Virus record (IMG/VR): IMGVR_UViG_2703718788_000009
Length of the DNA: 13,879 bases
Strand: one strand, 5' to 3'
Origin: a virus
Taxonomy: Duplodnaviria; Heunggongvirae; Uroviricota; Caudoviricetes
Part shown: positions 309-12,987 of the stretch, piece by piece
How the letters are laid out: each line of letters opens with the position of its first letter
Position numbering within the stretch: the first letter of the stretch is position 1
Notes under the pieces: model-generated
The model's input: only the letters and a program-made list of their open reading frames with translations
The model's database searches: none
What the model was told of the DNA's origin: nothing
Translations under genes and position numbers: made by a program

Positions 309-2438
309 ATGGCAATGAAGGAAGTCGCCAGACTAACAAACGTTATTTACTGGGATTCTGATAAATCCTCCTGGCGAAAAGAAGTTAAACGGCTTGAGGA
401 TTATAAAAAATCCTGGAAGAAAGCCACCGACGATATTGCTAAAGCTGATTTTAAGTCTAATCAGGCTGTGCTCAGAACACAAAGAACACGCGCTAAGGTG
501 GAAGAGCAGATCGCCAGAGCACAGAAGAAACAACGTGCTCAGGCTGTCAGCCGTCTGACCGGAGGCAATAATCCGGAGCTCTCCTCTATGCGCAAGTTCT
601 ATCAGCAGCAAGCCAGAGAAGCCGCCAGACAACAAAAACTGTTAGATCGTAGTGTTGGAGATGTTCAGCACAGAAAAGCACGTGTAGGGGCCAACAGTGC
701 ACGAATCAGCAGCATGTTTGATGGCTCTCTGGTTGCTCAGTTCCAATCCAGAATTCAGAGAGTTAATGCTGATTATGCTAAAGGGGCTATCAACCTGCAG
801 ACCTATAATCAGAAAATGGCCCGACTCAGAGCTGAAATGAAGATGGCATCTAGAGATGCCACCACCTTTCAAGGCAAGCTAGATAAACTGGCAGCAGGTG
901 CGAGCAAGGTGCATAACAATATCGGCAAGCTTAACAGTGCTTTAGGCAAGATAGCCATTGGCCTGACCGCTGCGGGATGGGGTATTCAGAGAGCTGTCAG
1001 CAGTGCTATGAGCGCTCAATCTGACCATAACTCAGCCTATTATGGTTTGCTTGCTCAGAACAAGGATGATAAAGCCAAGACTGACCAACAGATGGCTTTT
1101 ATCGACAGAATCTCTAACGATTATGGGATGGATCAGCGTGAGGCTGAAGGCGGCTTTATGCGCTTTGCTGCAGCCACACCGAACGTAAAAGAGGGTGATA
1201 AACAGGCTCTCTTTGAGGCTATGGCTATTAAAGGTCGCTCAGTGGGTGCTACTGCGGACCAACAGAACAGGGCTATCGTTGCACTAGGGCAGATCTATAG
1301 CAAGGGCGGTCGAGTGTATGCGGAAGAGCTTAAGGGCCAACTTTCTGAAGCCCTGGCAGGCTCTCAGGTAGATTTCACCCGTGCGGCTATCGATGCCGGA
1401 ATCATCAAGAAAGAGGAAGAATTTAATAAAGCCCTTGAAGATGGCAAGATCACCATGGACAAGCTTCTTCCCTCTCTGGTGAAAATTTGGGGTGCTGCAA
1501 AAGAAACTGACGCTTTTGCTAAATCCATGCAGCAGCCAGAGGTGGCACTGCAGAGAATGAGCAACCAGTTTTTTAAACTAAAGCAATCCTTTATGGGTGT
1601 TGTTGATCCAACTGATAACGTTATTACCCTTTCTGAATCCCTGATCTACATCTTCGAAGACTTATCATCAATTTTCAGCGGCTCAGGTGAAGATGCCAAA
1701 TCACTGGGGGTTATGCTGGGTGAGGCAATGGATACAGTTTACACCCGTGCAGTTTGGGCTATTTGGTGGATTAAGAAGATCGCTAAAGAAATCGGTGAGA
1801 TGTTCAATCTGACCGCACAGGATGCAGGAAGTTGGATAGGCACAATTGTTACCGCTATCATGGGCCTGAAGGTTGCTGGAAGCGTGGCAGGCATGGTGGG
1901 CGGCCTTATCTCTATGCTGTGGAAGCTTGGATCAGCGATCAAGGCTTTATTAGTTGGTGGCGGTGTTGGTGATATCAGCACTGGGGGCACACCAGGTAAG
2001 GGCAAACCAGGTAAAGGCGGTTTAATCGGGAAAGTAGGCAGACTGGGAAGGTTTGCAGGTCCGGCTGCAGTTATTGCTACCGGATTCGATATTGCTAATG
2101 GTCTGGATGCATACTGGCAGAATCCTGATAATCAGCGACAGGAAGGAGTTAAACACCCGGAATGGCTAACCAGCATAGTTAATGGTGCTTCTAGCTTCCT
2201 CGGCCTTGATTATCGTCTCGATGCAGGACGCTACATTACCAGACCAACACCGACGGGTGGAATGGCTATTCAGAATGGTGGCTATCAACCAGTTCAGGTA
2301 AATGTAGTTCCACAAGGTGAGATTTCCGGCAAATGGGAGATAACCATTGATGAGGGTGGAATTGCCAGGGTGATCCAGAAGGAAGTCAGCGATCAGTTGG
2401 ATTGGAAAGCCACACAGGAATCTAATCAGCTTTTCTAA
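309..2438 (+). CDS. phage tail tape measure protein (lambda gpH-like)
   Basis: 709-aa ORF with SD 'gaggt'. Charged, Ala/Gln/Lys-rich N-terminal half, two hydrophobic helices (WIGTIVTAIMGLKVAGSVAGMVGGLISMLW), then a Gly-rich segment (GGGVGDISTGGTPGKGKPGKGG). The segment EEFNKALEDGKIT resembles lambda gpH 'EELNKALKDGKIL', recalled from memory and not verified. Confidence 0.75.
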   Translation: MAMKEVARLTNVIYWDSDKSSWRKEVKRLEDYKKSWKKATDDIAKADFKSNQAVLRTQRTRAKVEEQIARAQKKQRAQAVSRLTGGNNPELSSMRKFYQQQAREAARQQKLLDRSVGDVQHRKARVGANSARISSMFDGSLVAQFQSRIQRVNADYAKGAINLQTYNQKMARLRAEMKMASRDATTFQGKLDKLAAGASKVHNNIGKLNSALGKIAIGLTAAGWGIQRAVSSAMSAQSDHNSAYYGLLAQNKDDKAKTDQQMAFIDRISNDYGMDQREAEGGFMRFAAATPNVKEGDKQALFEAMAIKGRSVGATADQQNRAIVALGQIYSKGGRVYAEELKGQLSEALAGSQVDFTRAAIDAGIIKKEEEFNKALEDGKITMDKLLPSLVKIWGAAKETDAFAKSMQQPEVALQRMSNQFFKLKQSFMGVVDPTDNVITLSESLIYIFEDLSSIFSGSGEDAKSLGVMLGEAMDTVYTRAVWAIWWIKKIAKEIGEMFNLTAQDAGSWIGTIVTAIMGLKVAGSVAGMVGGLISMLWKLGSAIKALLVGGGVGDISTGGTPGKGKPGKGGLIGKVGRLGRFAGPAAVIATGFDIANGLDAYWQNPDNQRQEGVKHPEWLTSIVNGASSFLGLDYRLDAGRYITRPTPTGGMAIQNGGYQPVQVNVVPQGEISGKWEITIDEGGIARVIQKEVSDQLDWKATQESNQLF

Positions 2439-2448
2439 TATTGTGATC

Positions 2449-2469
2449 TAAATCAATAAGTTAGCCTAA
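2449..2469. repeat. copy 1 of 20-bp repeat 'aaatcaataagttagcYtaa'
   Basis: Matches 8341..8360 at 19 of 20 positions; both copies lie downstream of the stop of a plus-strand gene. Confidence 0.7.
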
Positions 2470-2485
2470 CCGGATAAACTCCAGG

Positions 2486-2521
2486 CAAGAAAAAAGCCCC
2501 TAAGTGTTAACAAAGGGGCTC
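2486..2521. terminator. intrinsic terminator-like hairpin, strong on the minus strand, weaker on the plus strand
   Basis: Perfect 7-bp stem agcccct (2495..2501) / aggggct (2514..2520) with a 12-nt loop. The minus strand reads a U5 run after the stem; the plus strand is followed by a pyrimidine-rich 'cttctccggtatcctttt'. Confidence 0.5.
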
Positions 2522-2550
2522 TTCTCCGGTATCCTTTTGATGCGGGGCAA

Positions 2551-2598
2551 AACCTGCTAACAAAAATCAACCTCTCGCGAGACTAATGTTAGCAGGTT
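2551..2598. other. perfect 12-bp inverted repeat (aacctgctaaca / tgttagcaggtt) around a 24-nt loop that carries the 'caacctctcgc' motif
   Basis: Direct reverse-complement match within the ORF-free region between the convergent operons. Confidence 0.6.
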
Positions 2599-2939
2599 GC
2601 CGGAAGGTAAGTCAACTCCGGCCTATAAACCTTAAAGCGACTATAAAATTGCCCCGCCAATTGTGATGATCCGACCTTTGAGGCGGGTCCGGTGCCCAGG
2701 GGGTGCAGTGATGCACAAACCAGGCAACGATAAACAGGCTAACAGTGATAGCGGCGCTCAATCAGCGCACTAAATCCTAACCAGTCCGGGAAAGAGGCTG
2801 GCTCTATCGACCGCTCATGCACGGGACAATGCATACCTGATAAAGGATTCTCACAAGGGACCAATCGCGAGAAAAGAAGTGGAAAGGGGCTGATTTGTGG
2901 TGTATCACTACGGCCTCAAAAGAACACTATTGTCTTTTT

Positions 2940-3392
2940 TCAGCCTCTCCCAACATTTGACCAGTATTTGATTGCACCGATCAAATCATCATAGTGGCGC
3001 ATTGCATCATTGAAGCCTTTATAGCTTGCCCATTGTGGTGAAACTTTGTTATTGCTGAATTGCCCACTAATCAGGATAGTCTCCAAAATGTCGGCGTATC
3101 GCTTGCCAATTCGCTTTCTGACGGCCTCAGAGCTCCCACCCTTTACGATTGCATTAATCAGGGCTTTTGTGTGTCTCAGGCTCTCATAGAGCATTGCAGC
3201 GTGGGCAGATTCCATAAAGGAGCGCTTAGGCAGATCACCCCACCCCTCAGAATGGATAGCCGCCAGTGTGGCGTAATTCAGGCCGCTATAGTGTTTCCCG
3301 TCATCCCAGCCAACCGCTACACCTTCCATCTGTGAGAGCTCTTTATGCAGCTTATCCATCATGCGCTTGTCTATGGTGCAACGGACTTTCAT
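2940..3392 (-). CDS. hypothetical protein, possibly virion morphogenesis or head-tail joining
   Basis: 150-aa ORF whose ATG overlaps the upstream gene's stop in an ATGA arrangement (translational coupling). It is the last gene of the minus-strand structural operon. The functional guess rests on context only. Confidence 0.5.
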   Translation of the reverse strand: MKVRCTIDKRMMDKLHKELSQMEGVAVGWDDGKHYSGLNYATLAAIHSEGWGDLPKRSFMESAHAAMLYESLRHTKALINAIVKGGSSEAVRKRIGKRYADILETILISGQFSNNKVSPQWASYKGFNDAMRHYDDLIGAIKYWSNVGRG

Positions 3393-4168
3393 TTTGTAGC
3401 ATCCTTGGCAAACTTGGCCTGCCTTTGCTGTTTCCAGGCGCTATCAGCTGCGTCATAGTTGCCGCCGTTTTCCTCTAACAACGTGTTAAAATCTTTAGTC
3501 TTAGCCGATGGGGTGTTGGTTGAGTTCCCTACGTTGCTATTCTTCTCAGCACTGTTAACAGCACCCTTTTGCTGTGTTTTGTTCACCTTCTTGCTGTTAG
3601 TGAAGACTCCGGCATTTTCGACCATCTTCACCTTGAAGGTGCGGAATTCTTCAAAGGTGCAATCAATAGTGATGCAGTCACCAGAGGAAGAGCTACGCTT
3701 AACTTCACATTTCGTCATGATGAAGTTCTCAAGGAGTCCGGCATCTTCACTTACCAGGCTAACAAGCTGGCGCTTGTCTCTCATTTCCATAAGTGCCTGA
3801 ACAGCGGCGGCAGGGCGCATAGATTCACGGGGATTATCTGGATCAGTGTTCCGGTCAATGTAGTTCTCTTTCCGGATGATATGAGGAGAAGAGGTAACAA
3901 TACCCGTAAAGCTGACAGATTTATCTTTAATGACGGCATGGTCTGACATGGTGGTGCCATCCTCGACCGCATAGCTCGATTTCTCAACAGGGAACGAATA
4001 GCTGACATCAGAGATAGAGTCAAAGAAGATAGCCACGTTATCGGTATAGTTGAAGCCATCCATTATATTTTTGTTTTGTGAATATCCCCCACACATAACA
4101 GTGAATGCAGGAGATCTCGATTCAGCTTGTTTTGCAGCTGTCAGAGCATCACTAGCCATATTAAACAT
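3389..4168 (-). CDS. hypothetical protein, possibly a virion structural component
   Basis: 259-aa ORF. A GGAGG sits 1 nt before the first ATG and about 10 nt before the second ATG (4159), so the true start is probably 4159 (MASDALT...). Ser/Thr/Asn-rich, with a Lys/Asn-rich low-complexity C-terminus. Confidence 0.55.
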   Translation of the reverse strand: MFNMASDALTAAKQAESRSPAFTVMCGGYSQNKNIMDGFNYTDNVAIFFDSISDVSYSFPVEKSSYAVEDGTTMSDHAVIKDKSVSFTGIVTSSPHIIRKENYIDRNTDPDNPRESMRPAAAVQALMEMRDKRQLVSLVSEDAGLLENFIMTKCEVKRSSSSGDCITIDCTFEEFRTFKVKMVENAGVFTNSKKVNKTQQKGAVNSAEKNSNVGNSTNTPSAKTKDFNTLLEENGGNYDAADSAWKQQRQAKFAKDATK

Positions 4169-4264
4169 GCCTCCAAAATGAATCTTTTCGTTGCCCTGCT
4201 TAAAATCTGCAGAAAATACAGGGCAGTTATTCGTTAGAATCGCTTATAGCTCTTCCCGAGAGCG

Positions 4265-4525
4265 TTATTTTGCAAAACGATTATGGGCATTCAGGGCTTT
4301 TTTGCGGTCCTGGGCTTGTTTGCGTGCAATAAAATGTTCGAAAGTCTCGGCCCAGGTGCATTTATTATATTCACGGTATTTATGCATAGCCTGGCGGCTA
4401 ACGTCATAGCAGGCGGAAAATGTGGAGATACGCAGGAATTCCGGCAGATCCTCGTCATCGATATGGATAATATCAAAAGGCACGTCGTCACGGTCGCCGT
4501 ATAAAACAATTTTCATAAAAGACAC
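4265..4525 (-). CDS. hypothetical small acidic protein (about 83 aa from the ATG at 4516)
   Basis: The track start at 4525 is GTG; the ATG at 4516 has SD 'gaggtg' 6 nt upstream. First gene downstream of repeat copy B. Confidence 0.5.
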   Translation of the reverse strand: MSFMKIVLYGDRDDVPFDIIHIDDEDLPEFLRISTFSACYDVSRQAMHKYREYNKCTWAETFEHFIARKQAQDRKKALNAHNRFAK

Positions 4526-4548
4526 CTCAAAAACTTAAGACGGGGATT

Positions 4549-4595
4549 ATGAGTCCTTCCAGGACCTTAGCTAAAGCTAAGCCCTTTGGGTCTGT
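4549..4595. repeat. 47-bp repeat, copy B
   Basis: See copy A (57..103). Lies between the capsid-gene terminator and the next minus-strand gene. Confidence 0.85.
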
Positions 4596-4602
4596 GGATA
4601 AT

Positions 4603-4663
4603 AAAAAAGGGAAGAGGGAAAGACCTATCCCCGATCTCTCACCTCTTCCCTTTGCTTTTATTT
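4603..4663. terminator. bidirectional rho-independent terminator downstream of the capsid gene
   Basis: 9-bp stem gggaagagg (4609..4617) / cctcttccc (4642..4650) with a 24-nt loop; flanked by A6 (4603..4608, a U6 run on the minus strand) and 'tttgcttttattt' (4651..4663). Confidence 0.65.
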
Positions 4664-4679
4664 GGCCTTCGAAGAAGGT

Positions 4680-5729
4680 TTATTTAGCCTTGGCTTTTGC
4701 CAGAGCAGCGGCGGCGGCGTTTTTAACACTCACTTTAACCACAACTTCGGGCATCATGTTCATGAAAGCATAAGAGGATTCAACGAAGATTTCTCGTTTG
4801 GCTCTGGACTCTTCCATATACATGAAAGCTTCACGTGCAGCGCCGTTTGCAAGCTTCAGGTTGCGAGCGCAAGGGCCGAAAAATTGAGTATAAACGCCCA
4901 CCATATCGCCTAACGCATGCGGCTGGAACTGTGGGACCAGATAAGCAGTATTCTCTGGCAGACTATCCATTTGCACCACACGCAGAGCTAAGCCTGGAAT
5001 GCGGAAAGTCGGGAAGCCCGGCAGAATATCCTCAGGGAACATCAGACCTTTATCAGTGATATTCTGATTGCCGAACAACAGCACTTTTCGCAACAGTTCA
5101 TCAGTCTGAATTGCAGCAAAGAGCTCAGCACGGCAGAACAGGGTGAAACCACGCAGAGCGCGAACGACACCACGCTGTTTAACCTTGCTCAGCGCAACCA
5201 GGTCCTGCAGCTGTTTAAGGATATCTTTAGCTAAATCCACTTCTGAGGTGGTTTGCTGTGCGCCCAGCAGTTCGCACACATTCAGTTCTTTACCCTTGGT
5301 GAGGATAATTTTGTTCTCAAAGAGAGCAAGCTGGCGTGCTTCTTCATGGGTCTGGCGTAAGCCTTCACCAAGCTGAATAACACGACGAGCGGTTACAGAC
5401 TCTAAATTCTCTTCGGAATCTTTGCCCGGAACACGGATACCCTGCCAGTCAGAAGGATAAATAGCACTTGATGCGGCAGTGAATGCCATATCACCCGTGC
5501 CCGTTTCACGCTCATCTGCGGTAATGGTAGCCATCTGTTCACCGTAGCGCGGATACTGACCGAAAGCGGTTTGTTTCACCTGGCGAACTTTGTCATATTC
5601 AAATTTAAAGGTATTGCACAGAGCAGTAGTGTTGAAGATATCCATTGCTGAAATAATCTGGTTATCCAGCGGGATGTCTTTAATCAAGCCACACAGATCG
5701 CGGACTTCGAATTCTTTTTTCATCTCCAA
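4680..5729 (-). CDS. major capsid protein (lambda gpE-like)
   Basis: The likely start is the ATG at 5723 with AAGGAGG 6 nt upstream; the track start at 5729 is TTG. The segment SLPENTAYLV and the C-terminal 'REIFVESSYAFMNMMPEVVVKVSV' resemble lambda gpE 'FLPDNTMVLG' and 'REFTMIQSAPLMLLADPDEFVSV', recalled from memory. About 347 aa, preceded by a small beta-rich protein. Confidence 0.7.
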   Translation of the reverse strand: MEMKKEFEVRDLCGLIKDIPLDNQIISAMDIFNTTALCNTFKFEYDKVRQVKQTAFGQYPRYGEQMATITADERETGTGDMAFTAASSAIYPSDWQGIRVPGKDSEENLESVTARRVIQLGEGLRQTHEEARQLALFENKIILTKGKELNVCELLGAQQTTSEVDLAKDILKQLQDLVALSKVKQRGVVRALRGFTLFCRAELFAAIQTDELLRKVLLFGNQNITDKGLMFPEDILPGFPTFRIPGLALRVVQMDSLPENTAYLVPQFQPHALGDMVGVYTQFFGPCARNLKLANGAAREAFMYMEESRAKREIFVESSYAFMNMMPEVVVKVSVKNAAAAALAKAKAK

Positions 5730-5734
5730 CCTCC

Positions 5735-6070
5735 TTATTGTGCAACACGCAAATCGCCATTGCTGGCAGCGATAACAGCGGCTAAGCCTTCTTTATCCAC
5801 GTAGGCCGGATTGATATAACAGCCCTTGTTGGCAACAACGATAAAAGCATCACCAACCTCAGCACGTTCTACAACCAGCAGCGGAGTTTTACCGGTGTGC
5901 GTTGCTTTAACGAAGGTCTCAACCTCGCCAGCCTCAGTCACCACAACAACAGTGCCAGCCGGAATCTCAGCTTTAACTTTGTTTTTAATTTCAACGTCGC
6001 GAATACTAAATTGCTCATCTGCGGCGTATGAAATGATGTGTCCGCGTGTGCGGATAGTCATATCTCTCAT
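5735..6070 (-). CDS. putative head decoration or auxiliary capsid protein (by position)
   Basis: 111-aa ORF whose TAA stop overlaps the capsid gene's SD. Val/Thr/Gly-rich and beta-like. The assignment is positional (lambda D-E order), not from sequence identity. Confidence 0.45.
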   Translation of the reverse strand: MRDMTIRTRGHIISYAADEQFSIRDVEIKNKVKAEIPAGTVVVVTEAGEVETFVKATHTGKTPLLVVERAEVGDAFIVVANKGCYINPAYVDKEGLAAVIAASNGDLRVAQ

Positions 6071-6195
6071 TTGATCACCTGCGATTTAAATTAACTCCCC
6101 TCAAAGAGTTCCGGTATAACCTCTCAAACCACGACAGGCTCGGGCCGAAAAGTTATGCCGGAAATCTAAAGGGAAATTGATACAAGGAGAGGGAG

Positions 6196-6225
6196 ATAGC
6201 CCCGCACCGTCCAAGCGGGGGCTAT
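6196..6225. other. GC-rich stem-loop in the capsid-operon leader
   Basis: atagccccgc / gcgggggctat pairs as a roughly 10-bp stem with one bulge and a 9-nt loop. No U-tract on either strand, so not a classic terminator. Confidence 0.35.
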
Positions 6226-6548
6226 TCCACATGGGGAAACCGACAACAGTCGGATGATAGTTCACAGTATGGGTTACGGTTACTAGAGAGCACTATCACG
6301 AAAGGCACTCCCCCGAATCAGTTCAGGCTGCGGTCACATCAGCGGGGAAATACCTTTCGGGATAGCTACCCACACAGAAAACCCGCAAAAGAAAACTGTG
6401 TGGATAACTAGCCCAATAGGAGAATTAATCGACCACTCAACGATGATCAGGGTAGTGTTATTTATAAGGCGGCACCGCTACCTGGTCGCCTTTACTTTGG
6501 AGGAAAATACGGCAAATCACTTTCACCATTGATTTACGGTATATGTAT

Positions 6549-6577
6549 ATTATATCAGTATTCTCTCAAATTGTCAA
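6549..6577 (-). promoter_or_regulatory. perfect-consensus sigma70 promoter (TTGACA-N17-TATAAT) on the minus strand, directed at the capsid operon
   Basis: The reverse complement of 6549..6577 reads TTGACA atttgagagaatactga TATAAT, with an AT-rich stretch upstream. Predicted start near 6540, about 470 nt before the ATG at 6070. Confidence 0.6.
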
Positions 6578-6841
6578 CACCCTGATTATATAAATTCTAA
6601 TAATTAGCGTAGTAACGGTATTTTCAGACTGCTATCAATCCCATCAATACGTCACCCCCACCCTTTAGATGCATACATCCGACCTACTTTGTAGGCTTGG
6701 CGTACTGCCAAGGTCGAAGCTATGCGACTCATATCTATCACCACTTTATAAAGCTTGATAGATATCTTTTGATCAATATCAATGTTTTCCGGGGATTTAC
6801 CCGGCTATAGTTCGAATCAAGGAAGGGGAGCATTGATAGAG

Positions 6842-6890
6842 ACACCCAAAGGGGTGACTGAAAGTCACCTGGCATAGCCAGTGAAAGCAC
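6842..6890. repeat. 50-bp repeat, copy A (palindromes GGTGAC-N5-GTCACC and CTGGC-N3-GCCAG)
   Basis: About 42 of 49 positions match 12072..12120; lies about 45 bp upstream of the ATG at 6934. Confidence 0.8.
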
Positions 6891-7157: not shown

Positions 7158-7418
7158 ATGACGGGGGCTAAAGATATCAGGAGATTGAGGGAAGAGCTGA
7201 TAGCTGAAATTAAAGCTAAGGCAAAGCAAATGGAGATAGCCGCACAAATGGATGTAGCGGAACAGATGTACAAGATGGTTGAAGAGGGAACACCACGGCA
7301 GGTTATAGCAAAAACATTTGGTGTGGGGATCGCCACCGTGCACAGAAGGCTGAAAGCCTATGCCGACTACCACAATATCGAGAGAAAGGAGGATGGGAGA
7401 TTTAAGAAGAATAAATAG
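7158..7418 (+). CDS. small DNA-binding protein with a helix-turn-helix motif
   Basis: 86-aa ORF with SD 'gagagg'. The motif TPRQVIAKTFGVGIATVHRRLK looks like an HTH of the resolvase or IS3 OrfA type; the N-terminus looks coiled-coil. Confidence 0.6.
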   Translation: MTGAKDIRRLREELIAEIKAKAKQMEIAAQMDVAEQMYKMVEEGTPRQVIAKTFGVGIATVHRRLKAYADYHNIERKEDGRFKKNK

Positions 7419-7475: not shown

Positions 7476-8162
7476 ATGTTTAAAGGTCTTGTTGTTACGC
7501 TATTGGCTTGCATTGTATTTGGTCCATGGGTGTTAGTAATTGCTTTACCTATATTGCTGATCATGAGCTTAGGGAATGATATTAAAAAGCTGCAAAAGCT
7601 GCATGCACAATATAAGGAGAATCCCGGCGCGTTCATGGTAAGTCTGGTTATAGTCGCGGGGCTTATTGGATGGGTGTATTTCTCCCTCCCCACAGGAAAT
7701 ACAACTGCAAATGTAGAAGAGGCCGCAGTGGTAGAGGAAAAAGCCAACAAAGGATTCAGATTTATTGTTGGTGTGGATAGCCCAGTATATGGCCCTGAAG
7801 CTGTGGATCCTGCAATGGTGCATGCCTGGTTATGGAACAGAACGGAGAAAGGTAGCTGCAATCAACTAAAAGCGAGCGCCAACATAGAAGAGGAAGGAGA
7901 TACATTTTTCGCATGGTGTAAAGATATCAAAGGCAATGATAGGTGGTTTACCATTACCAATATTGTAGGTGTTTCCCGTTCACTAATGAATCACCCTGAG
8001 GCTAAGAATCCGCTAACAGGTGTCCGATTAAAAGATGGCCCAATATGGATCGATTTATACGGAACACAAATCACTGAGGGCGTGAACAGCGATATCCAGG
8101 ATAAGCTGAAAGACATAAATAATCAGTATGGTGCGATTGTTGAAACCTCTCCTATGAAATAA
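7476..8162 (+). CDS. membrane protein with two N-terminal transmembrane helices and a roughly 150-aa C-terminal domain, possibly superinfection exclusion
   Basis: 228-aa ORF with SD 'agagg'. Hydrophobic segments at about residues 5..30 and 53..70, separated by a Lys-rich loop. Function is a hypothesis. Confidence 0.6.
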   Translation: MFKGLVVTLLACIVFGPWVLVIALPILLIMSLGNDIKKLQKLHAQYKENPGAFMVSLVIVAGLIGWVYFSLPTGNTTANVEEAAVVEEKANKGFRFIVGVDSPVYGPEAVDPAMVHAWLWNRTEKGSCNQLKASANIEEEGDTFFAWCKDIKGNDRWFTITNIVGVSRSLMNHPEAKNPLTGVRLKDGPIWIDLYGTQITEGVNSDIQDKLKDINNQYGAIVETSPMK

Positions 8163-8182
8163 CCACACCTACCCAACCTACC

Positions 8183-8216
8183 AGGGCCACCACTTAGGAT
8201 GGCCCTTTTTATTTAT
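8183..8216 (+). terminator. rho-independent terminator of the 6934..8162 module
   Basis: 7-bp stem agggcca / tggccct with a 10-nt loop, followed by 'ttttatttat', 21 nt after the stop codon. Confidence 0.7.
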
Positions 8217-8220
8217 GTGC

Positions 8221-8280
8221 TATTTAATACCCATTTATCCCCTATTTAATGCCTATTTATTGATTTAATCCGTTTTATGC
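8221..8280. repeat. phased TATTTA(A/T) repeats at roughly 11-bp spacing; possibly bent DNA or an architectural-protein site
   Basis: tatttaatacc / atttatcccc / tatttaatgcc / tatttattgat / ttaatccg / ttttatgcc in succession. Confidence 0.4.
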
Positions 8281-8340
8281 CACAACCGCCCGGTTGACAG
8301 AGTAAGAGAGAGGGTGTAACCCTTTTTCGTAATACTAATA

Positions 8341-8360
8341 AAATCAATAAGTTAGCTTAA
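8341..8360. repeat. copy 2 of 20-bp repeat 'aaatcaataagttagcYtaa'
   Basis: See 2449..2469. Confidence 0.7.
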
Positions 8361-9368
8361 TAAGCCTTTTCTCTATTTTTGTCAAATTTAACATACCCTA
8401 AAAAACTGCAAAATCTGACTGCAAGATTATCTGCAGCTGGATTTCTTACACCTCAATTTGTGGTATCACCCTGACTAGTTTGTGCATAAAATGAACAGTT
8501 TTTAACATTTCCTATTCACCTGGTAACCACACAAAAAGCTAAAAACGAGGCACAGATAATCTTAGAGGCCTGTTTTCTTGTTATCACTATGGGAACGTCG
8601 TAGAAGTGATTTTGATGAAAGATGACCTACCCTATTACACCCCCATTTTTTGTTATCACAATTGCATCCTGTGCGGTATATGGCTGTGTGCTGAAAGCGG
8701 TCTTGGGTGTGGGTGTCAGAAATATCCATTAGCGGTATTAATACCCGTCAGATGTTCGTCTGAGGTGCCAGGCAGGCGCTCCCCCACCTCCCTTTTTTCT
8801 TCTAACAATTCTCAAATATCACACCACTGCCCACCACGTTGCTATTATGTTAATTCTTAAGCTTTGCTGTATGTTGTGCACATTATTTATTCAGGTGCGT
8901 GTACGTAAATTCTGGGCCTCCTTATCATGATTTTTAAATCAGATTTTGTAGTGCGCTTTATTAGTGTAGATAAGATCTATTATGTTAAATGCAATTTTCC
9001 CAACCCTTCAAATCAATGACTTACATGTAAGCATGCACTAACACCCCACACAGCACATTAGACGTGTAGATGTCTATATCCCACATTTTTGATTGTTTTG
9101 TAGTCATTCCCCTGATCATTTAACCAGTATAGTTTGCTATCTGCAGACCACAAAATCGGAATTTACATCTGATTAACATAATCTGTTAGCATGATCACCA
9201 TTACCCACACAACAATAACCCCATGCAAGCCTCTTTAGGCAATTTATCGGCGTGTTGGTGTGAACAGTCTTTCATGTTCTTTATGTATTCATGACTGCAA
9301 GGAATGTATTCATTGGCCTGTGTGGGGGAAGGATGGACTGCCCCAGGGGCCATACTTATGATGCCCGG

Positions 9369-9404
9369 TCAACATAAGTGTTGATAAAATCAAGGGGTGT
9401 TGAT
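9369..9404. promoter_or_regulatory. pair of adjacent inverted repeats (TCAACA-N4-TGTTGA and ATCAA-N6-TTGAT); candidate operator
   Basis: Both have perfect arms; they sit just upstream of the iteron cluster. Confidence 0.4.
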
Positions 9405-9426
9405 CTGCATATTTCCCACACATGAG

Positions 9427-9456
9427 AGGAAATCAGAGCAAAGAGAGAGGAGAGAG
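9427..9456. repeat. polypurine (GA-rich) tract
   Basis: A 30-nt run of almost only A and G on the plus strand. Confidence 0.5.
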
Positions 9457-9465
9457 GTTTGTTAG

Positions 9466-9520
9466 TCAAAATCAAGTCACATTAGAGTCAAATCAAGTCA
9501 AATCAGATGCAATCAATCCC
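9466..9520. repeat. cluster of 'aatcaagtca'-type direct repeats
   Basis: gtcaaaatcaagtca, gtcaaatcaagtca, aatcagatgca, aatcaatccc in tandem. Confidence 0.6.
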
Positions 9521-9521
9521 C

Positions 9522-9586
9522 CACCTGTTGGGATTTCCCACATGTTCAACCATACACAGGAGCTAACCTGTTGGGATTTCCTACAC
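9522..9586. repeat. two copies of 'acctgttgggatttccYaca', 45 bp apart
   Basis: 9522..9541 and 9567..9586 are near-identical. Confidence 0.7.
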
Positions 9587-9639
9587 CTCTTGCACATACC
9601 CCGGAAGATTTTTCCGGTGTGCCATCTTTGCAGGCTCCA

Positions 9640-9807
9640 ACCTGTGAAGAATTTTCACACCTGTAAATCCATACAGCACGGTAAAAACTACCGCACCACC
9701 TGTCAAAATATTTTACTACCCCACCAATAATACGGCCCATACCTGTAAAATATTTTTACTACTACCTGTCAAAATCTTTTACTACTACCTGTAAAAATAT
9801 TTGACAC
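9640..9807. repeat. iteron array with ACCTGT core (part of the candidate replication origin)
   Basis: ACCTGT occurs at 9640, 9659, 9698, 9741, 9764 and 9787, plus 9523 and 9566 in the preceding repeat. The last four sit in units of about 23 bp, 'acctgt(c)aaaatattttactac', three of them directly tandem. Confidence 0.7.
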
Positions 9808-9839
9808 TAATAGATAAAGTAACAGACCACACAATAGAT

Positions 9840-9865
9840 CCCCCCCTAACCCCCCCCCCAGGGGG
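9840..9865. repeat. homopolymer tracts C7-TAA-C10-A-G5, bracketed by GATC sites
   Basis: Read directly: gatcccccccctaacccccccccaggggg, with GATC at 9837..9840 and 9876..9879. Confidence 0.8.
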
Positions 9866-9902
9866 AATGGGGAGGGATCAGAGAGTGGGGAAGGTTTATC
9901 AA

Positions 9903-10027
9903 TATATCAAATTGATATACTTAGCTAGATGTATCAATTAATACACTTAAAGGTGAGCAATGCTTAGCTAGATGTATCAATCCGATACACTTAGAATATT
10001 CTAGATGTATCAATTAATACACTTAAA
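9903..10027. repeat. 17-bp perfect palindrome followed by three direct repeats of about 30 bp
   Basis: Palindrome tatatcaa-a-ttgatata at 9903..9919; repeats 'ctagatgtatcaat..atacactta' at 9920..9951, 9963..9994 and 9999..10027. Confidence 0.75.
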
Positions 10028-10906
10028 TCACGTAACTTATTGTATTTATTAAGAAAAGTCATCTACCTATATATACTACTGATTCGCCTCCGCTCATCAT
10101 TAGTATGGTGTAACTGATTCATGCTTCGCTTACGCTCACATTCATCTACTTACACCCCCTTATCTGAATTGAACATTCCCGTCCAATCCAGCTAAGAGAA
10201 TTGATTGAACATTACCTAACATCCGTTAGCTAACATTCTAATCAATTAACTACTTAAACACTTCCACACCTTCCGGTGGTGCCAAGTAACCTGGCATGGT
10301 GGGAAAAGATTCTGCCGTTTTAGGTAGAATTGATTTCCCACAAATAGTAAGTGTCGGCCCTTCAATGTCACTCTCCTATGAGGGGAGAGATGACGGGCCT
10401 CCTGTGTGGGTGAGTATCGGAGCAGTCTGTGAAGTATGAGCAGGCTGTGAGATACGCTACTGTATATCTGCGTAGAACAGCCTCCGCTGTTTACGCTCTT
10501 TGTGTGGTCCGGCGAATGCGTCAGCATGAGGCCCACATGTGGACCGCTGCCGAAAGCTTGCCAGCGCCGGAAGGAGGCAGCAAAGAGTCTCCCGCGCTCA
10601 TGTGTGGGCGTATACGTAAGATATACATTCATAAATCCAATCCTAGGCCCCTAAATGGCCTTCTGGCTGCATTAACCTGTGTGAGTAGTGCAATTGCATT
10701 ACCTGATGCTTAAATCGCGTTGTAGGGCCTCTCATAGAGAATTTAACTATCAAGATAAAAATTGCAGATCGGTCTATTGACAATCTTATTGCATAAATGC
10801 TATAAGTTATTCTGGTTTTGACACGGTAGGGGCCATTAATAATGCTTACCCCCTTTGCTGTGGACTTGCTTGCACCTATAGCACACCTAAATGATAATAA
10901 TTCTCA

Positions 10907-10935
10907 TTGACAATTGGTTGACAATATGATAAGAT
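10907..10935 (+). promoter_or_regulatory. candidate sigma70 promoter (TTGACA-N17-TAAGAT) upstream of a small ORF
   Basis: Consensus -35 at 10907..10912, a 4-of-6 -10 at 10930..10935, and a second overlapping TTGACA at 10918. Confidence 0.35.
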
Positions 10936-10970
10936 TATAAATAGGGGGAGAAACAGATCCGGAGGTCAAT

Positions 10971-11120
10971 GTGGAAATTACTGATGCAATAGCGATCATC
11001 AACCTGGCTGTACTGTGGTGCGGTGTTGCCTACATAGCCGGAGTAACTGCAATAGACAATCTTGAAGAAAAAATGATAGATAAATACAAAAAGATTGTTG
11101 ACAATTTGACGAATGTTTGA
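10971..11120 (+). CDS. small membrane protein (49 aa, GTG start), possibly holin-like or toxin-like
   Basis: GGAGG 5 nt upstream of the GTG; VEITDAIAIINLAVLWCGVAYIAGVTAIDNLEEKMIDKYKKIVDNLTNV has one transmembrane-like helix and a charged C-terminal tail. Absent from the ORF track. Confidence 0.3.
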   Translation: MEITDAIAIINLAVLWCGVAYIAGVTAIDNLEEKMIDKYKKIVDNLTNV

Positions 11121-11126
11121 TAAAAT
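11098..11126 (+). promoter_or_regulatory. strong sigma70 promoter (TTGACA-N17-TAAAAT) for the leader and Rep operon
   Basis: -35 at 11098..11103, a 17-nt spacer, -10 at 11121..11126. Confidence 0.6.
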
Positions 11127-11176
11127 ATAAAGCATAGGGTAATTCTCAGCATGTGAATTTTCCTTAAACAGACTAG

Positions 11177-11206
11177 CGGGGCTTGTCTTGAGTCCCGTTT
11201 CTTTTT
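11177..11206 (+). terminator. intrinsic terminator or attenuator in the leader between the promoter and the first operon gene
   Basis: Stem cggggc / gtcccg (one G-U pair) with a 9-nt loop, followed by 'tttcttttt'. It lies about 45 nt after the predicted start and 44 nt before the ATG at 11250. Confidence 0.55.
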
Positions 11207-11459: not shown

Positions 11460-11495
11460 TAAAAGGTAACCGTAACCCGGTAAGAGGTAAACATT

Positions 11496-12410: not shown

Positions 12411-12498
12411 TACCCCCAAATAAACTAAATAAACTAAACATAGAATTACTAGAACTAGATTGATTGCCCTGATCTTTTAAACGTTCGGAGAATTAATC

Positions 12499-12987
12499 AT
12501 GTTCAAATCTGATCTTTCTGATTCCCAATTTGAAAAACTGGTAGCACTGCAGAAATATCTCCCCAGTGATGATCAACCAACACGACAGGCTAAACACTTA
12601 TTAGTCGAGGGCTTTACCCCTGAATTCGTGGCGGAATACACAGGCGTTAAACTTGAGAAAGTCCAAAAACTATATAATGAGTCCTGGAATCCACGGTGTC
12701 GAGTTCCCCTCAGTGTCTACAACGAAATAGACAGAGATAGAAATGTCTTCGAAGATCGCCGCCGCAAATCTCTTTTAATGTGGAATTGTGGGATGAATAT
12801 TGAAGAGATAGCAAAAGAATTAAAAGTAACCTGCTTTCATATCTGGGGCTTGTTGAGTGAAATCCTGCCACGTAAGGAGCTTAATCAACGTTTGCCTAAG
12901 CCCGGCAGTCGTGCTTATCGCGAATTTATATTCATCTACCGCCGCCATAGCAATAAAGTCCGGAAAGCAATGGCCCAGAAAGCCTAA
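12499..12987 (+). CDS. DNA-binding protein with two predicted helix-turn-helix motifs (regulator or small-terminase-like; unresolved)
   Basis: 162-aa ORF with SD 'ggag'. HTH-like segments FTPEFVAEYTGVKLEKVQKL and MNIEEIAKELKVTCFHIWGLL; basic C-terminus. Confidence 0.55.
   Translation: MFKSDLSDSQFEKLVALQKYLPSDDQPTRQAKHLLVEGFTPEFVAEYTGVKLEKVQKLYNESWNPRCRVPLSVYNEIDRDRNVFEDRRRKSLLMWNCGMNIEEIAKELKVTCFHIWGLLSEILPRKELNQRLPKPGSRAYREFIFIYRRHSNKVRKAMAQKA

Follow-up and report, generated by a model that had tools for sequence, protein, structure and literature searches.

The window analyzed here, by which we mean the whole stretch of DNA at its full length of 13,879 nucleotides (nt), is the IMG/VR record IMGVR_UViG_2703718788_000009, assigned to the Caudoviricetes. 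It aligned end to end with complete circular plasmids of Escherichia coli of 13.2-13.7 kilobases (kb), and judged from this alignment it is itself a whole circular E. coli plasmid of ~13.9 kb. On the minus strand, a promoter that we designate P1 faces an operon of capsid and tail genes, the first of which encodes a gpD-like protein of 111 amino acids (aa). An earlier note on this DNA had described a structured leader of roughly 470 nt between promoter and operon, a length borne out by the position of the first ATG at 6070. The leader consists of two parts, a structured RNA of ~360 nt (~6542..6182) followed by a spacer hairpin region that extends to 6064.

The leader was compared across nine complete plasmids that are close relatives of the window (L001-L009) and across more diverged relatives. 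Protein searches identified L026/L027, a somewhat diverged version of the window type, and the L010/L015-L024 lineage (hereafter the L010 lineage), whose capsid protein is 81% and whose 111-aa protein is 65-69% identical to those of the window. A distant clade (L031-L035) was reached through a 162-aa protein with two helix-turn-helix (HTH) motifs encoded on the plus strand (39-48% identity), and L038 is a very remote relative (27% identity). The features of the leader, and the sites elsewhere to which it is related below, are these:

6578..6612, minus strand: AT-rich block upstream of the -35 element, holding the small palindrome CTAATTATTAG and conserved in close relatives
6549..6577, minus strand: promoter P1, with -35 TTGACA at 6577..6572, a 17-nt spacer, TG at 6557..6556, and -10 TATAAT at 6554..6549
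6507..6542, minus strand: predicted transcription start (~6542) and the variable 5' hairpin of the fold, with two or three alleles in close copies
6467..6491, minus strand: hairpin with the invariant loop CCAGGUAGCGGUG, one stem pair changing from G-C to C-G in the L010 lineage
6450..6465, minus strand: invariant single-stranded AUAAAUAACACU, then CUACCC, which pairs long-range with GGGUAG at 6371..6366
6419..6430, minus strand: unpaired GAUUAAUUCUCC (RNA nt 113-124), a candidate antisense segment, suggestive only
6399..6407, minus strand: DnaA-box-like TTATCCACA, within an arm of a predicted 15-base-pair (bp) RNA helix (6410..6396 with 6377..6363) in the minimum-energy fold of the window's RNA
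6293..6365, minus strand: 17-bp long-range helix of CUAUCCCGAAAGGUAUUU (6365..6348) with GAGUGCCUUUCGUGAUAG (6310..6293), with four compensatory pairs and 100% of cells paired
6240..6253, minus strand: small hairpin CCGAC-UGUU-GUCGG, with one G-C to A-U swap in close copies (CCAAC/GUUGG) read off the alignment
6192..6228, minus strand: 3' hairpin of the RNA, followed in the window's lineage by the tail CUCUCCUUGU, which holds no proper U-tract
6064..6191, minus strand: spacer hairpin, in which CUCUC at 6191..6187 pairs with the G of the AUG and AGAG at 6068..6064
2940..6070, minus strand: downstream capsid/tail operon
12487..12498, plus strand: GGAGAATTAATC, the Shine-Dalgarno sequence and spacer directly before the ATG at 12499 of the 162-aa two-HTH gene, a candidate target of the RNA

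The earlier note had pointed to an exact sigma-70 consensus on the minus strand at 6577..6549, to an AT-rich region upstream of it, and to the rarity of so perfect a match. Each of these points held: the sequence reads TTGACA-ATTTGAGAGAATACTGA-TATAAT, the 35 nt upstream of the -35 element are 71% A+T, and the site is the sole 12/12 sigma-70 match in the window. When up to one mismatch was allowed, two sites were observed against 0.10 expected per window, a count reached in one of 200 shuffles. The TG two bases ahead of the -10 element gives P1 the sequence of a sigma-70 extended -10 promoter. P1, its TG, and the AT-rich block are identical in all nine complete relatives (10 close copies counting the window), and equivalents matching 11 of 12 consensus positions lie at the same place in the L010 lineage (TTGACA-N17-TG-TAAAAT) and in the distant clade (TTGACT-N17-TATAAT). 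L038 carries a near-consensus promoter-like site, TTGCAA-N17-TG-TAAAAT, at the equivalent position. Because of the quality of P1, we expect it to be a strong, activator-independent, or "constitutive," promoter, and the AT-rich block is a possible UP element or operator. By spacing alone, transcription is predicted to begin at about 6542, 7 nt past the -10 element. A promoter scan revealed no other sigma-70-like site between P1 and the capsid operon.

P1 is not the only promoter-like sequence of this kind in the window. A near-consensus promoter, P2, lies on the plus strand at 11098..11126 (TTGACAATTTGAcgaatgttTGATAAAAT, 11/12) and has the template TTGACAATTTGA-N8-TGATAwAAT in common with P1. 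P2 points toward the replication/tape-measure operon, and some 50 nt beyond it come a hairpin and a T-run (11175..11199, plus strand). Each of the three window-clade lineages keeps P2, but the distant clade yielded no equivalent. The octamer TTGACAAT occurs five times in the window against 0.69 expected, with copies at 10777, 10907, and 10918 on the plus strand; two copies 11 nt apart fall within a third promoter-like site (10901..10935) upstream of a 49-aa hydrophobic open reading frame (ORF). These repeats could be a shared operator or the product of promoter duplication.

The segment downstream of P1 is among the best conserved parts of the plasmid. Positions 6301-6500 are 99.2-99.6% identical over the nine relatives, versus ~95% for most coding regions, and variation is found in the first ~40 transcribed bases, of which close relatives have two or three alleles. 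For folding, the RNA was bounded by the predicted start (~6542) and by a point just beyond the 3' hairpin (6182). The resulting 361-nt minus-strand RNA had a predicted energy of -124.8 kcal/mol (z = -4.1), with none of 100 shuffles as good, and the opposite strand of the same segment gave z = -2.2. An alignment of 20 unique sequences from three lineages yielded a consensus of 46 pairs, in which 99.9% of cells were paired in register versus 42-46% with the partners slid by one to three columns. Compensatory changes were present in eight of the 46 pairs versus zero to two when slid, and the covariation score was 0.220 versus at most 0.082. The insert enclosed by the 17-bp helix is of unrelated sequence between lineages. 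Several invariant G-U pairs would read as A-C mismatches on the opposite strand, and therefore the functional strand should be the one transcribed from P1.

No ORF conserved in position or frame was found inside the RNA. Rfam 15 gave no meaningful match when searched with the whole window at E <= 1 and with region 6050-6650 at E <= 10; the best matches in the region had E = 2.2-3.9 and 14-17 bits versus gathering scores of 36-71. The RNA family is absent from Rfam, and no database describes it. By its conservation and fold, the transcribed segment is in our reading a conserved structured noncoding RNA supported by covariation, albeit across few independent lineages. The fold is kept more tightly than the neighboring proteins, and for this reason the RNA core probably serves a regulatory function in its own right. 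The distant clade has an RNA of 315-360 nt in the same place, with its own consensus fold of 70 pairs (12 compensatory) plus a terminator. The RNA (nt 260-272; 6283..6271, minus strand) and the 5' untranslated region (UTR) of the Rep gene (11466..11478, plus strand) also have a 13-nt sequence, GUAACCGUAACCC, in common; we judged this match to be chance, as it is confined to the window's lineage and is one of identity, not complementarity.

The RNA would end at a hairpin. A strong GC hairpin had been noted earlier at 6196..6225, and these positions proved to be the core of a longer stem spanning 6228..6192, GGAAUAGCCCCCGC-UUGGA-CGGUGCGGGGCUAUCUCC, with a predicted energy of -20.5 kcal/mol. Every lineage of the window's clade has the hairpin at this position, with compensatory changes in its stem. 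What follows the stem differs between lineages. Within the first 9 nt past the hairpin there are eight to nine U in the L010 lineage and seven to eight in the distant clade, forming canonical intrinsic terminators, versus four to five in the window's lineage and L026, which would make poor ones. The window itself has the tail CUCUCCUUG, with four U in 9 nt, and a terminator scan of the window did not return this hairpin. In L038, a promoter, a long noncoding stretch, hairpin-plus-T-run terminators, and the gpD-like and gpE-like genes follow one another. Thus the order of promoter, terminator, and late genes holds in the L010 lineage, the distant clade, and L038, and the terminator of the window is without its U-tract.

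Downstream of the 3' hairpin, the window's transcript is predicted to form a second, longer hairpin that reaches the first capsid gene. In addition to the closing pairs listed above, AUCA at 6181..6178 is predicted to pair with UGAU at 6077..6074, the 3' edge of the Shine-Dalgarno sequence AGGUGA (6080..6075). The fold, computed on 6232..6040, had z = -5.4, with none of 200 shuffles as good. Over 11 variants it comprised 36 pairs, four of them compensatory, with 97% paired versus 32-55% when slid, and insertions of 80-100 nt in L009 and L026 sit exactly at the hairpin apex. The spacer hairpin is thus predicted to sequester both the ribosome-binding site (RBS) of the first capsid gene and its start codon. 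In the spacer, C exceeds G only modestly (19 versus 10 in 60 nt), and we make no claim of a Rho loading site there.

These considerations suggest the following scheme. P1 would produce a structured noncoding RNA of ~360 nt (~6542..6182, minus strand) at the head of the capsid/tail operon. In most lineages the 3' hairpin would act as an intrinsic terminator, so that the discrete RNA would be the main product and the capsid genes would be reached by read-through only. In the window's lineage, the U-tract is replaced by a CU-rich tail that would form the base of the second long hairpin; by engaging the start codon of the first capsid gene and the edge of its Shine-Dalgarno sequence, that hairpin would hold off translation. 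A default-off gate would accordingly stand between a very active P1 and the capsid genes, transcriptional in most lineages and translational in that of the window, with a possible contribution there from Rho polarity on the untranslated leader. A factor from a helper phage or from the plasmid is the obvious guess for what would open the gate. Termination, read-through, and translational repression, as well as every functional role ascribed to the RNA, are what we infer from sequence and predicted folds.

The earlier note had posed an either/or, with the capsid operon controlled in its leader or P1 driving a separate noncoding RNA. What we found is a mixture in which each half stands in part. 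The conserved covarying RNA and the canonical terminator at its end in the L010 lineage, the distant clade, and L038 speak for a separate RNA. The window's hairpin without a U-tract, the predicted RBS-sequestering hairpin, and the lack of another promoter before the operon speak for control in the leader. A structured RNA made from P1, together with a default-off gate before the capsid operon, is in our judgment probably the best explanation of the locus.

Several points weigh against this explanation. The start site, the 3' end, and the abundance of the RNA are all predictions, and we identified no factor that would open the gate. A divergently placed HTH gene at 7158..7418 could repress P1, in which case "constitutive" would be the wrong word. 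One closing pair of the spacer hairpin is a C-A mismatch in three of 11 sequences. In the window's clade the covariation counts draw on no more than about three independent lineages, to which the distant clade adds four sequences, and shared ancestry inflates such counts. Finally, a search of the distant clade with an nhmmer profile built from the window-clade RNA was negative, so that any homology between the two RNAs would rest on position and architecture, plus a likeness by eye of the 5' module, which in the distant clade reads ACCGAC-CAGCGGCAGGU-GUCGGU, then AACAACAGCCGCC.

Were P1 simply to transcribe the capsid operon at a high and constitutive level, the leader would be a plain long 5' UTR whose structure serves mRNA stability or folding, with neither a discrete RNA nor a gate. 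The window-lineage hairpin without a U-tract would fit this account, as would the standing of P1 as the only sigma-70-like promoter upstream of the operon. We consider it unlikely, since the L010 lineage, the distant clade, and L038 all have canonical terminators at the corresponding point, the RNA core is conserved beyond the proteins, and a covarying multi-helix fold with RBS sequestration exceeds the needs of stability; a plasmid would moreover pay a price for making capsid protein at a high level all the time. Another alternative is antitermination. In the late operon of phage lambda, the strong promoter PR' is followed by a terminated short RNA (6S), the terminator tR', and the late genes, with antitermination by Q. 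A strong promoter, a terminated short RNA, and late structural genes reproduce this design, and a Q-like antiterminator supplied by a helper or by the plasmid might let polymerase from P1 read into the capsid genes. In keeping with this, the initially transcribed ATAC-n-TATA contains a -10-like repeat (TATAcc, TATAAA or TATAAT), a motif common to both clades and located at the position of the lambda sigma-dependent pause element, and P2 shares with P1 the TTGACAATTTGA-N8-TGATAwAAT template, then a hairpin and T-run. Yet no Q-like match to Pfam, PHROG, or NCBIfam was found among the plasmid proteins scanned, blastn revealed no similarity to known phage late-promoter regions, and a Q-type module does not need a conserved fold of 350 nt; helper-sensing antitermination of the PR'-6S RNA-tR' type therefore seems to us improbable.

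The RNA might instead act in trans, as do the immunity RNAs of phages P1, P4, and N15, with its unpaired segment 6430..6419 pairing with the RBS of the 162-aa gene in the other operon and blocking translation. This segment, predicted to be unpaired, is a perfect 12-nt complement of the Shine-Dalgarno sequence and spacer of that gene. L026 differs from the window on both sides, yet all 12 positions pair when read directly. The independent L010 lineage has another 12-bp duplex, in which the homologous stretch of its RNA would pair with the Shine-Dalgarno region of this gene; no other site on either strand of that plasmid ranks higher. Satellites of the PLE type also carry an abundant noncoding RNA complementary to gene leaders (PMC7567579). 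Helices of 12 bp including G-U pairs are nevertheless common, at 10-15 per plasmid, and the target ranks only about sixth in the window and is not among the top 11 matches listed for L026. L029 combines a window-type RNA with a changed target, leaving 5 + 5 bp, and in the distant clade the ranks are 7, 36, 39, and >40, for a segment picked after the hits had been seen and lying inside a predicted helix. Nor did family or structure searches assign a function to the 162-aa target protein. On balance we hold the antisense proposal only tentatively, as possible though doubtful. Very unlikely, in our estimation, is that the conserved block acts as DNA, as a DnaA-box origin or a packaging site, with the promoter incidental. 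The consensus DnaA box of the earlier note is indeed present (TTATCCACA, minus strand, 6407..6399), and the conservation of the DNA is very high. The box is single, however, where a DnaA-dependent origin would have a conserved cluster beside an AT-rich unwinding element, and it is not kept in other lineages: L026 and L028-30 read TTATCCATA or TTATCCATG at this place, and the L010 lineage reads ATATCTACC. Compensatory changes and strand-specific G-U pairs point to an RNA from the P1 strand, and iteron-like arrays at 9464-10027, near the O-like Rep gene, fit an origin better. Any role for the box in this leader is thus unsupported, and the box is probably incidental.

The iteron-like arrays lie ~1.5 kb upstream of the O-like Rep gene. 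Four repeats of ~23 nt, with a spacing of 23 nt, occupy 9695-9808, and other repeat sets are found at 9464-9510, 9523-9585, and 9917-10027. The arrays probably mark an origin or partition region. They fall within a stretch of ~3 kb (8162..11098) without a convincing ORF, likewise in all relatives, of which 8400-9200 is 95-97% conserved. A primer of the ColE1 RNA II type was also considered for the leader RNA and rejected, there being no RNAI match in Rfam and nothing encoded on the strand opposite the RNA; the plasmid also has a Rep gene and iterons at other sites.

The protein encoded by the candidate target gene gave only sub-threshold matches to HTH, sigma-region-4, and KorA families, and no significant match in the Protein Data Bank was found with its AlphaFold model (pLDDT 78.5). 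Around its homologue in L038 the module is repeated, with no adjacent terminase. A scan of the RNA for exact complements in the minus-strand operon returned one 9-mer only and no repeated target sites. In its fullest form, the antisense proposal would make the RNA the founder of a new class of structured regulatory RNAs of ~350 nt, in an undescribed family of plasmid-borne phage satellites with gpD/gpE-type capsid genes and tail-length genes of their own. It would combine a switchable cis gate on the capsid operon, opened by a helper-phage signal, with silencing in trans of the 162-aa gene as a DNA-binding regulator or packaging protein, whereby one RNA would set the plasmid-versus-particle decision; we regard this as quite unlikely.

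The genes of the plasmid beyond the leader are as follows:

6070..5735, minus strand: 111-aa gpD-like gene, first of the operon downstream of P1
5729..4680, minus strand: 349-aa gpE-like/HK97-type major capsid gene (PHROG 29)
4168..3389, minus strand: Dit-like gene, preceded by a small ORF
3392..2940, minus strand: tail-completion-like gene
Plus strand: an 86-aa HTH protein, a variable 228-aa gene, an O-like Rep with an HTH motif, the 162-aa two-HTH protein, small tail-type ORFs, and a 709-aa tape measure

The capsid protein of relatives matches Pfam Phage_cap_E, and their small upstream protein matches the lambda head-decoration protein D (HDPD); both assignments were carried over from the relatives to the genes of the window. 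No terminase or portal family was detected among the plasmid proteins scanned. Therefore, with gpD/gpE-like capsid and tail genes present, the element looks like a plasmid-borne phage satellite or defective mini-phage, and may be an undescribed satellite. No tRNA or tmRNA was found in the window.

The plasmid family was found in seven of 5,426 complete E. coli genomes, as a plasmid in every case, and was typed as non-mobilizable. E. coli 190 (NZ_CP020521) and E275a (NZ_CP035869) each carry a member. A description of the family was not found in the literature. Searches of the INPHARED phages by blastn and tblastn revealed no homologue of the capsid or 111-aa gene, the sole match being a 52-nt piece in rV5-like phages. 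Queries of IMG/VR with the capsid protein and the RNA motif returned nothing, as did queries of GTDB genomes with the capsid and 162-aa alignments, and a metagenome scan gave near-identical copies only. L038 is a 62-kb IMG/VR contig that holds a remote version of the module at 9074..15071, consisting of O-like Rep, the 162-aa homologue, the tape measure, a gap, and the gpD-like and gpE-like genes, all on one strand. This suggests that the module also exists inside a larger element, possibly integrated.

Other parts of the plasmid are more changeable. The 228-aa gene (7476..8162, plus strand), whose product has a hydrophobic N-terminus, can be aligned in hardly any of the nine relatives; different genes of 173-236 aa stand there instead, and the position may thus hold variable cargo or accessory genes. 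The tape measure gene (309..2438) is far more diverged in its center (~800..2300) than the rest of the plasmid, at 72-86% identity, with ~1700-2200 aligned in one relative only. The tape-measure and tail-completion genes converge on a noncoding region, 2440..2940, that is as well conserved across relatives as the RNA core (98-99.8% identity). At 2485-2525 it contains a terminator-like hairpin with a weak resemblance to ctRNA_p42d (E = 0.25), and the region might serve as a packaging site or encode another RNA. The 52-nt piece matched in rV5-like phages (Vequintavirinae) lies at 6836..6887, forms three small hairpins, and is ~90% identical to unannotated AT-rich intergenic DNA of those phages. 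Within the plasmid family it is an indel carried by the window, L004, and L005 only, and a second indel of ~67 nt lies at about 6660-6730.

Phage satellites and phage-plasmids must silence their structural genes until a helper phage or an inducing signal arrives, and in phages P1, P4, N15, and lambda such silencing decisions are made by short leader RNAs and terminators. The leader-encoded immunity RNAs of P4 (CI RNA), P1/P7 (c4), and N15 (CA) make up the Rfam family C4 (RF01695). The locus described here resembles the lambda PR' region in having a strong, putatively constitutive promoter ahead of late structural genes, a terminated RNA as the default product, gpD/gpE-like capsid genes downstream, and a -10-like element in the initial transcript. 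It differs in that no Q homologue or Q-binding element was identified here, sequence similarity is absent, and the window's lineage has RBS sequestration in place of the terminator U-tract. The plasmid RNA also has roughly double the length, with a conserved fold of several helices. With the C4 RNAs the locus would share a constitutive promoter and a long untranslated leader giving rise to a regulatory RNA, a plasmid or satellite lifestyle, and a candidate complementarity to an RBS. Unlike them, it has no Rfam C4 match in the window, its RNA is four to five times larger, its candidate target lies in the other operon and not downstream in its own transcript, and there are no repeated downstream target sites.

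Two further systems invite comparison. The PLE satellite of Vibrio cholerae produces an abundant noncoding transcript from its ORF-free IIR region, with antisense matches to gene leaders and a mechanism that is unknown (PMC7567579). Host and element are unrelated to those studied here, the PLE RNA lies between inverted repeats, and expression in the present case is a prediction. The put RNAs of HK022 are, like the RNA described here, structured RNAs just downstream of a promoter, and the latter could likewise act on its own polymerase to pass terminators before phage genes. They are, however, two stem-loops of ~70 nt with no sequence or Rfam similarity to the plasmid RNA.

A structured RNA made from P1 and a default-off gate before the capsid genes would therefore represent a known regulatory logic, carried here by a much larger RNA that no database describes. 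Between sister lineages the gate seems to have exchanged one mechanism for another, with RBS sequestration taking the place of an intrinsic terminator. If confirmed, the RNA would constitute a new structured RNA family and the locus a tractable example of regulatory rewiring, and the strong promoter with its defined gate would provide a handle for finding the helper phage and for understanding what may be a new type of satellite.

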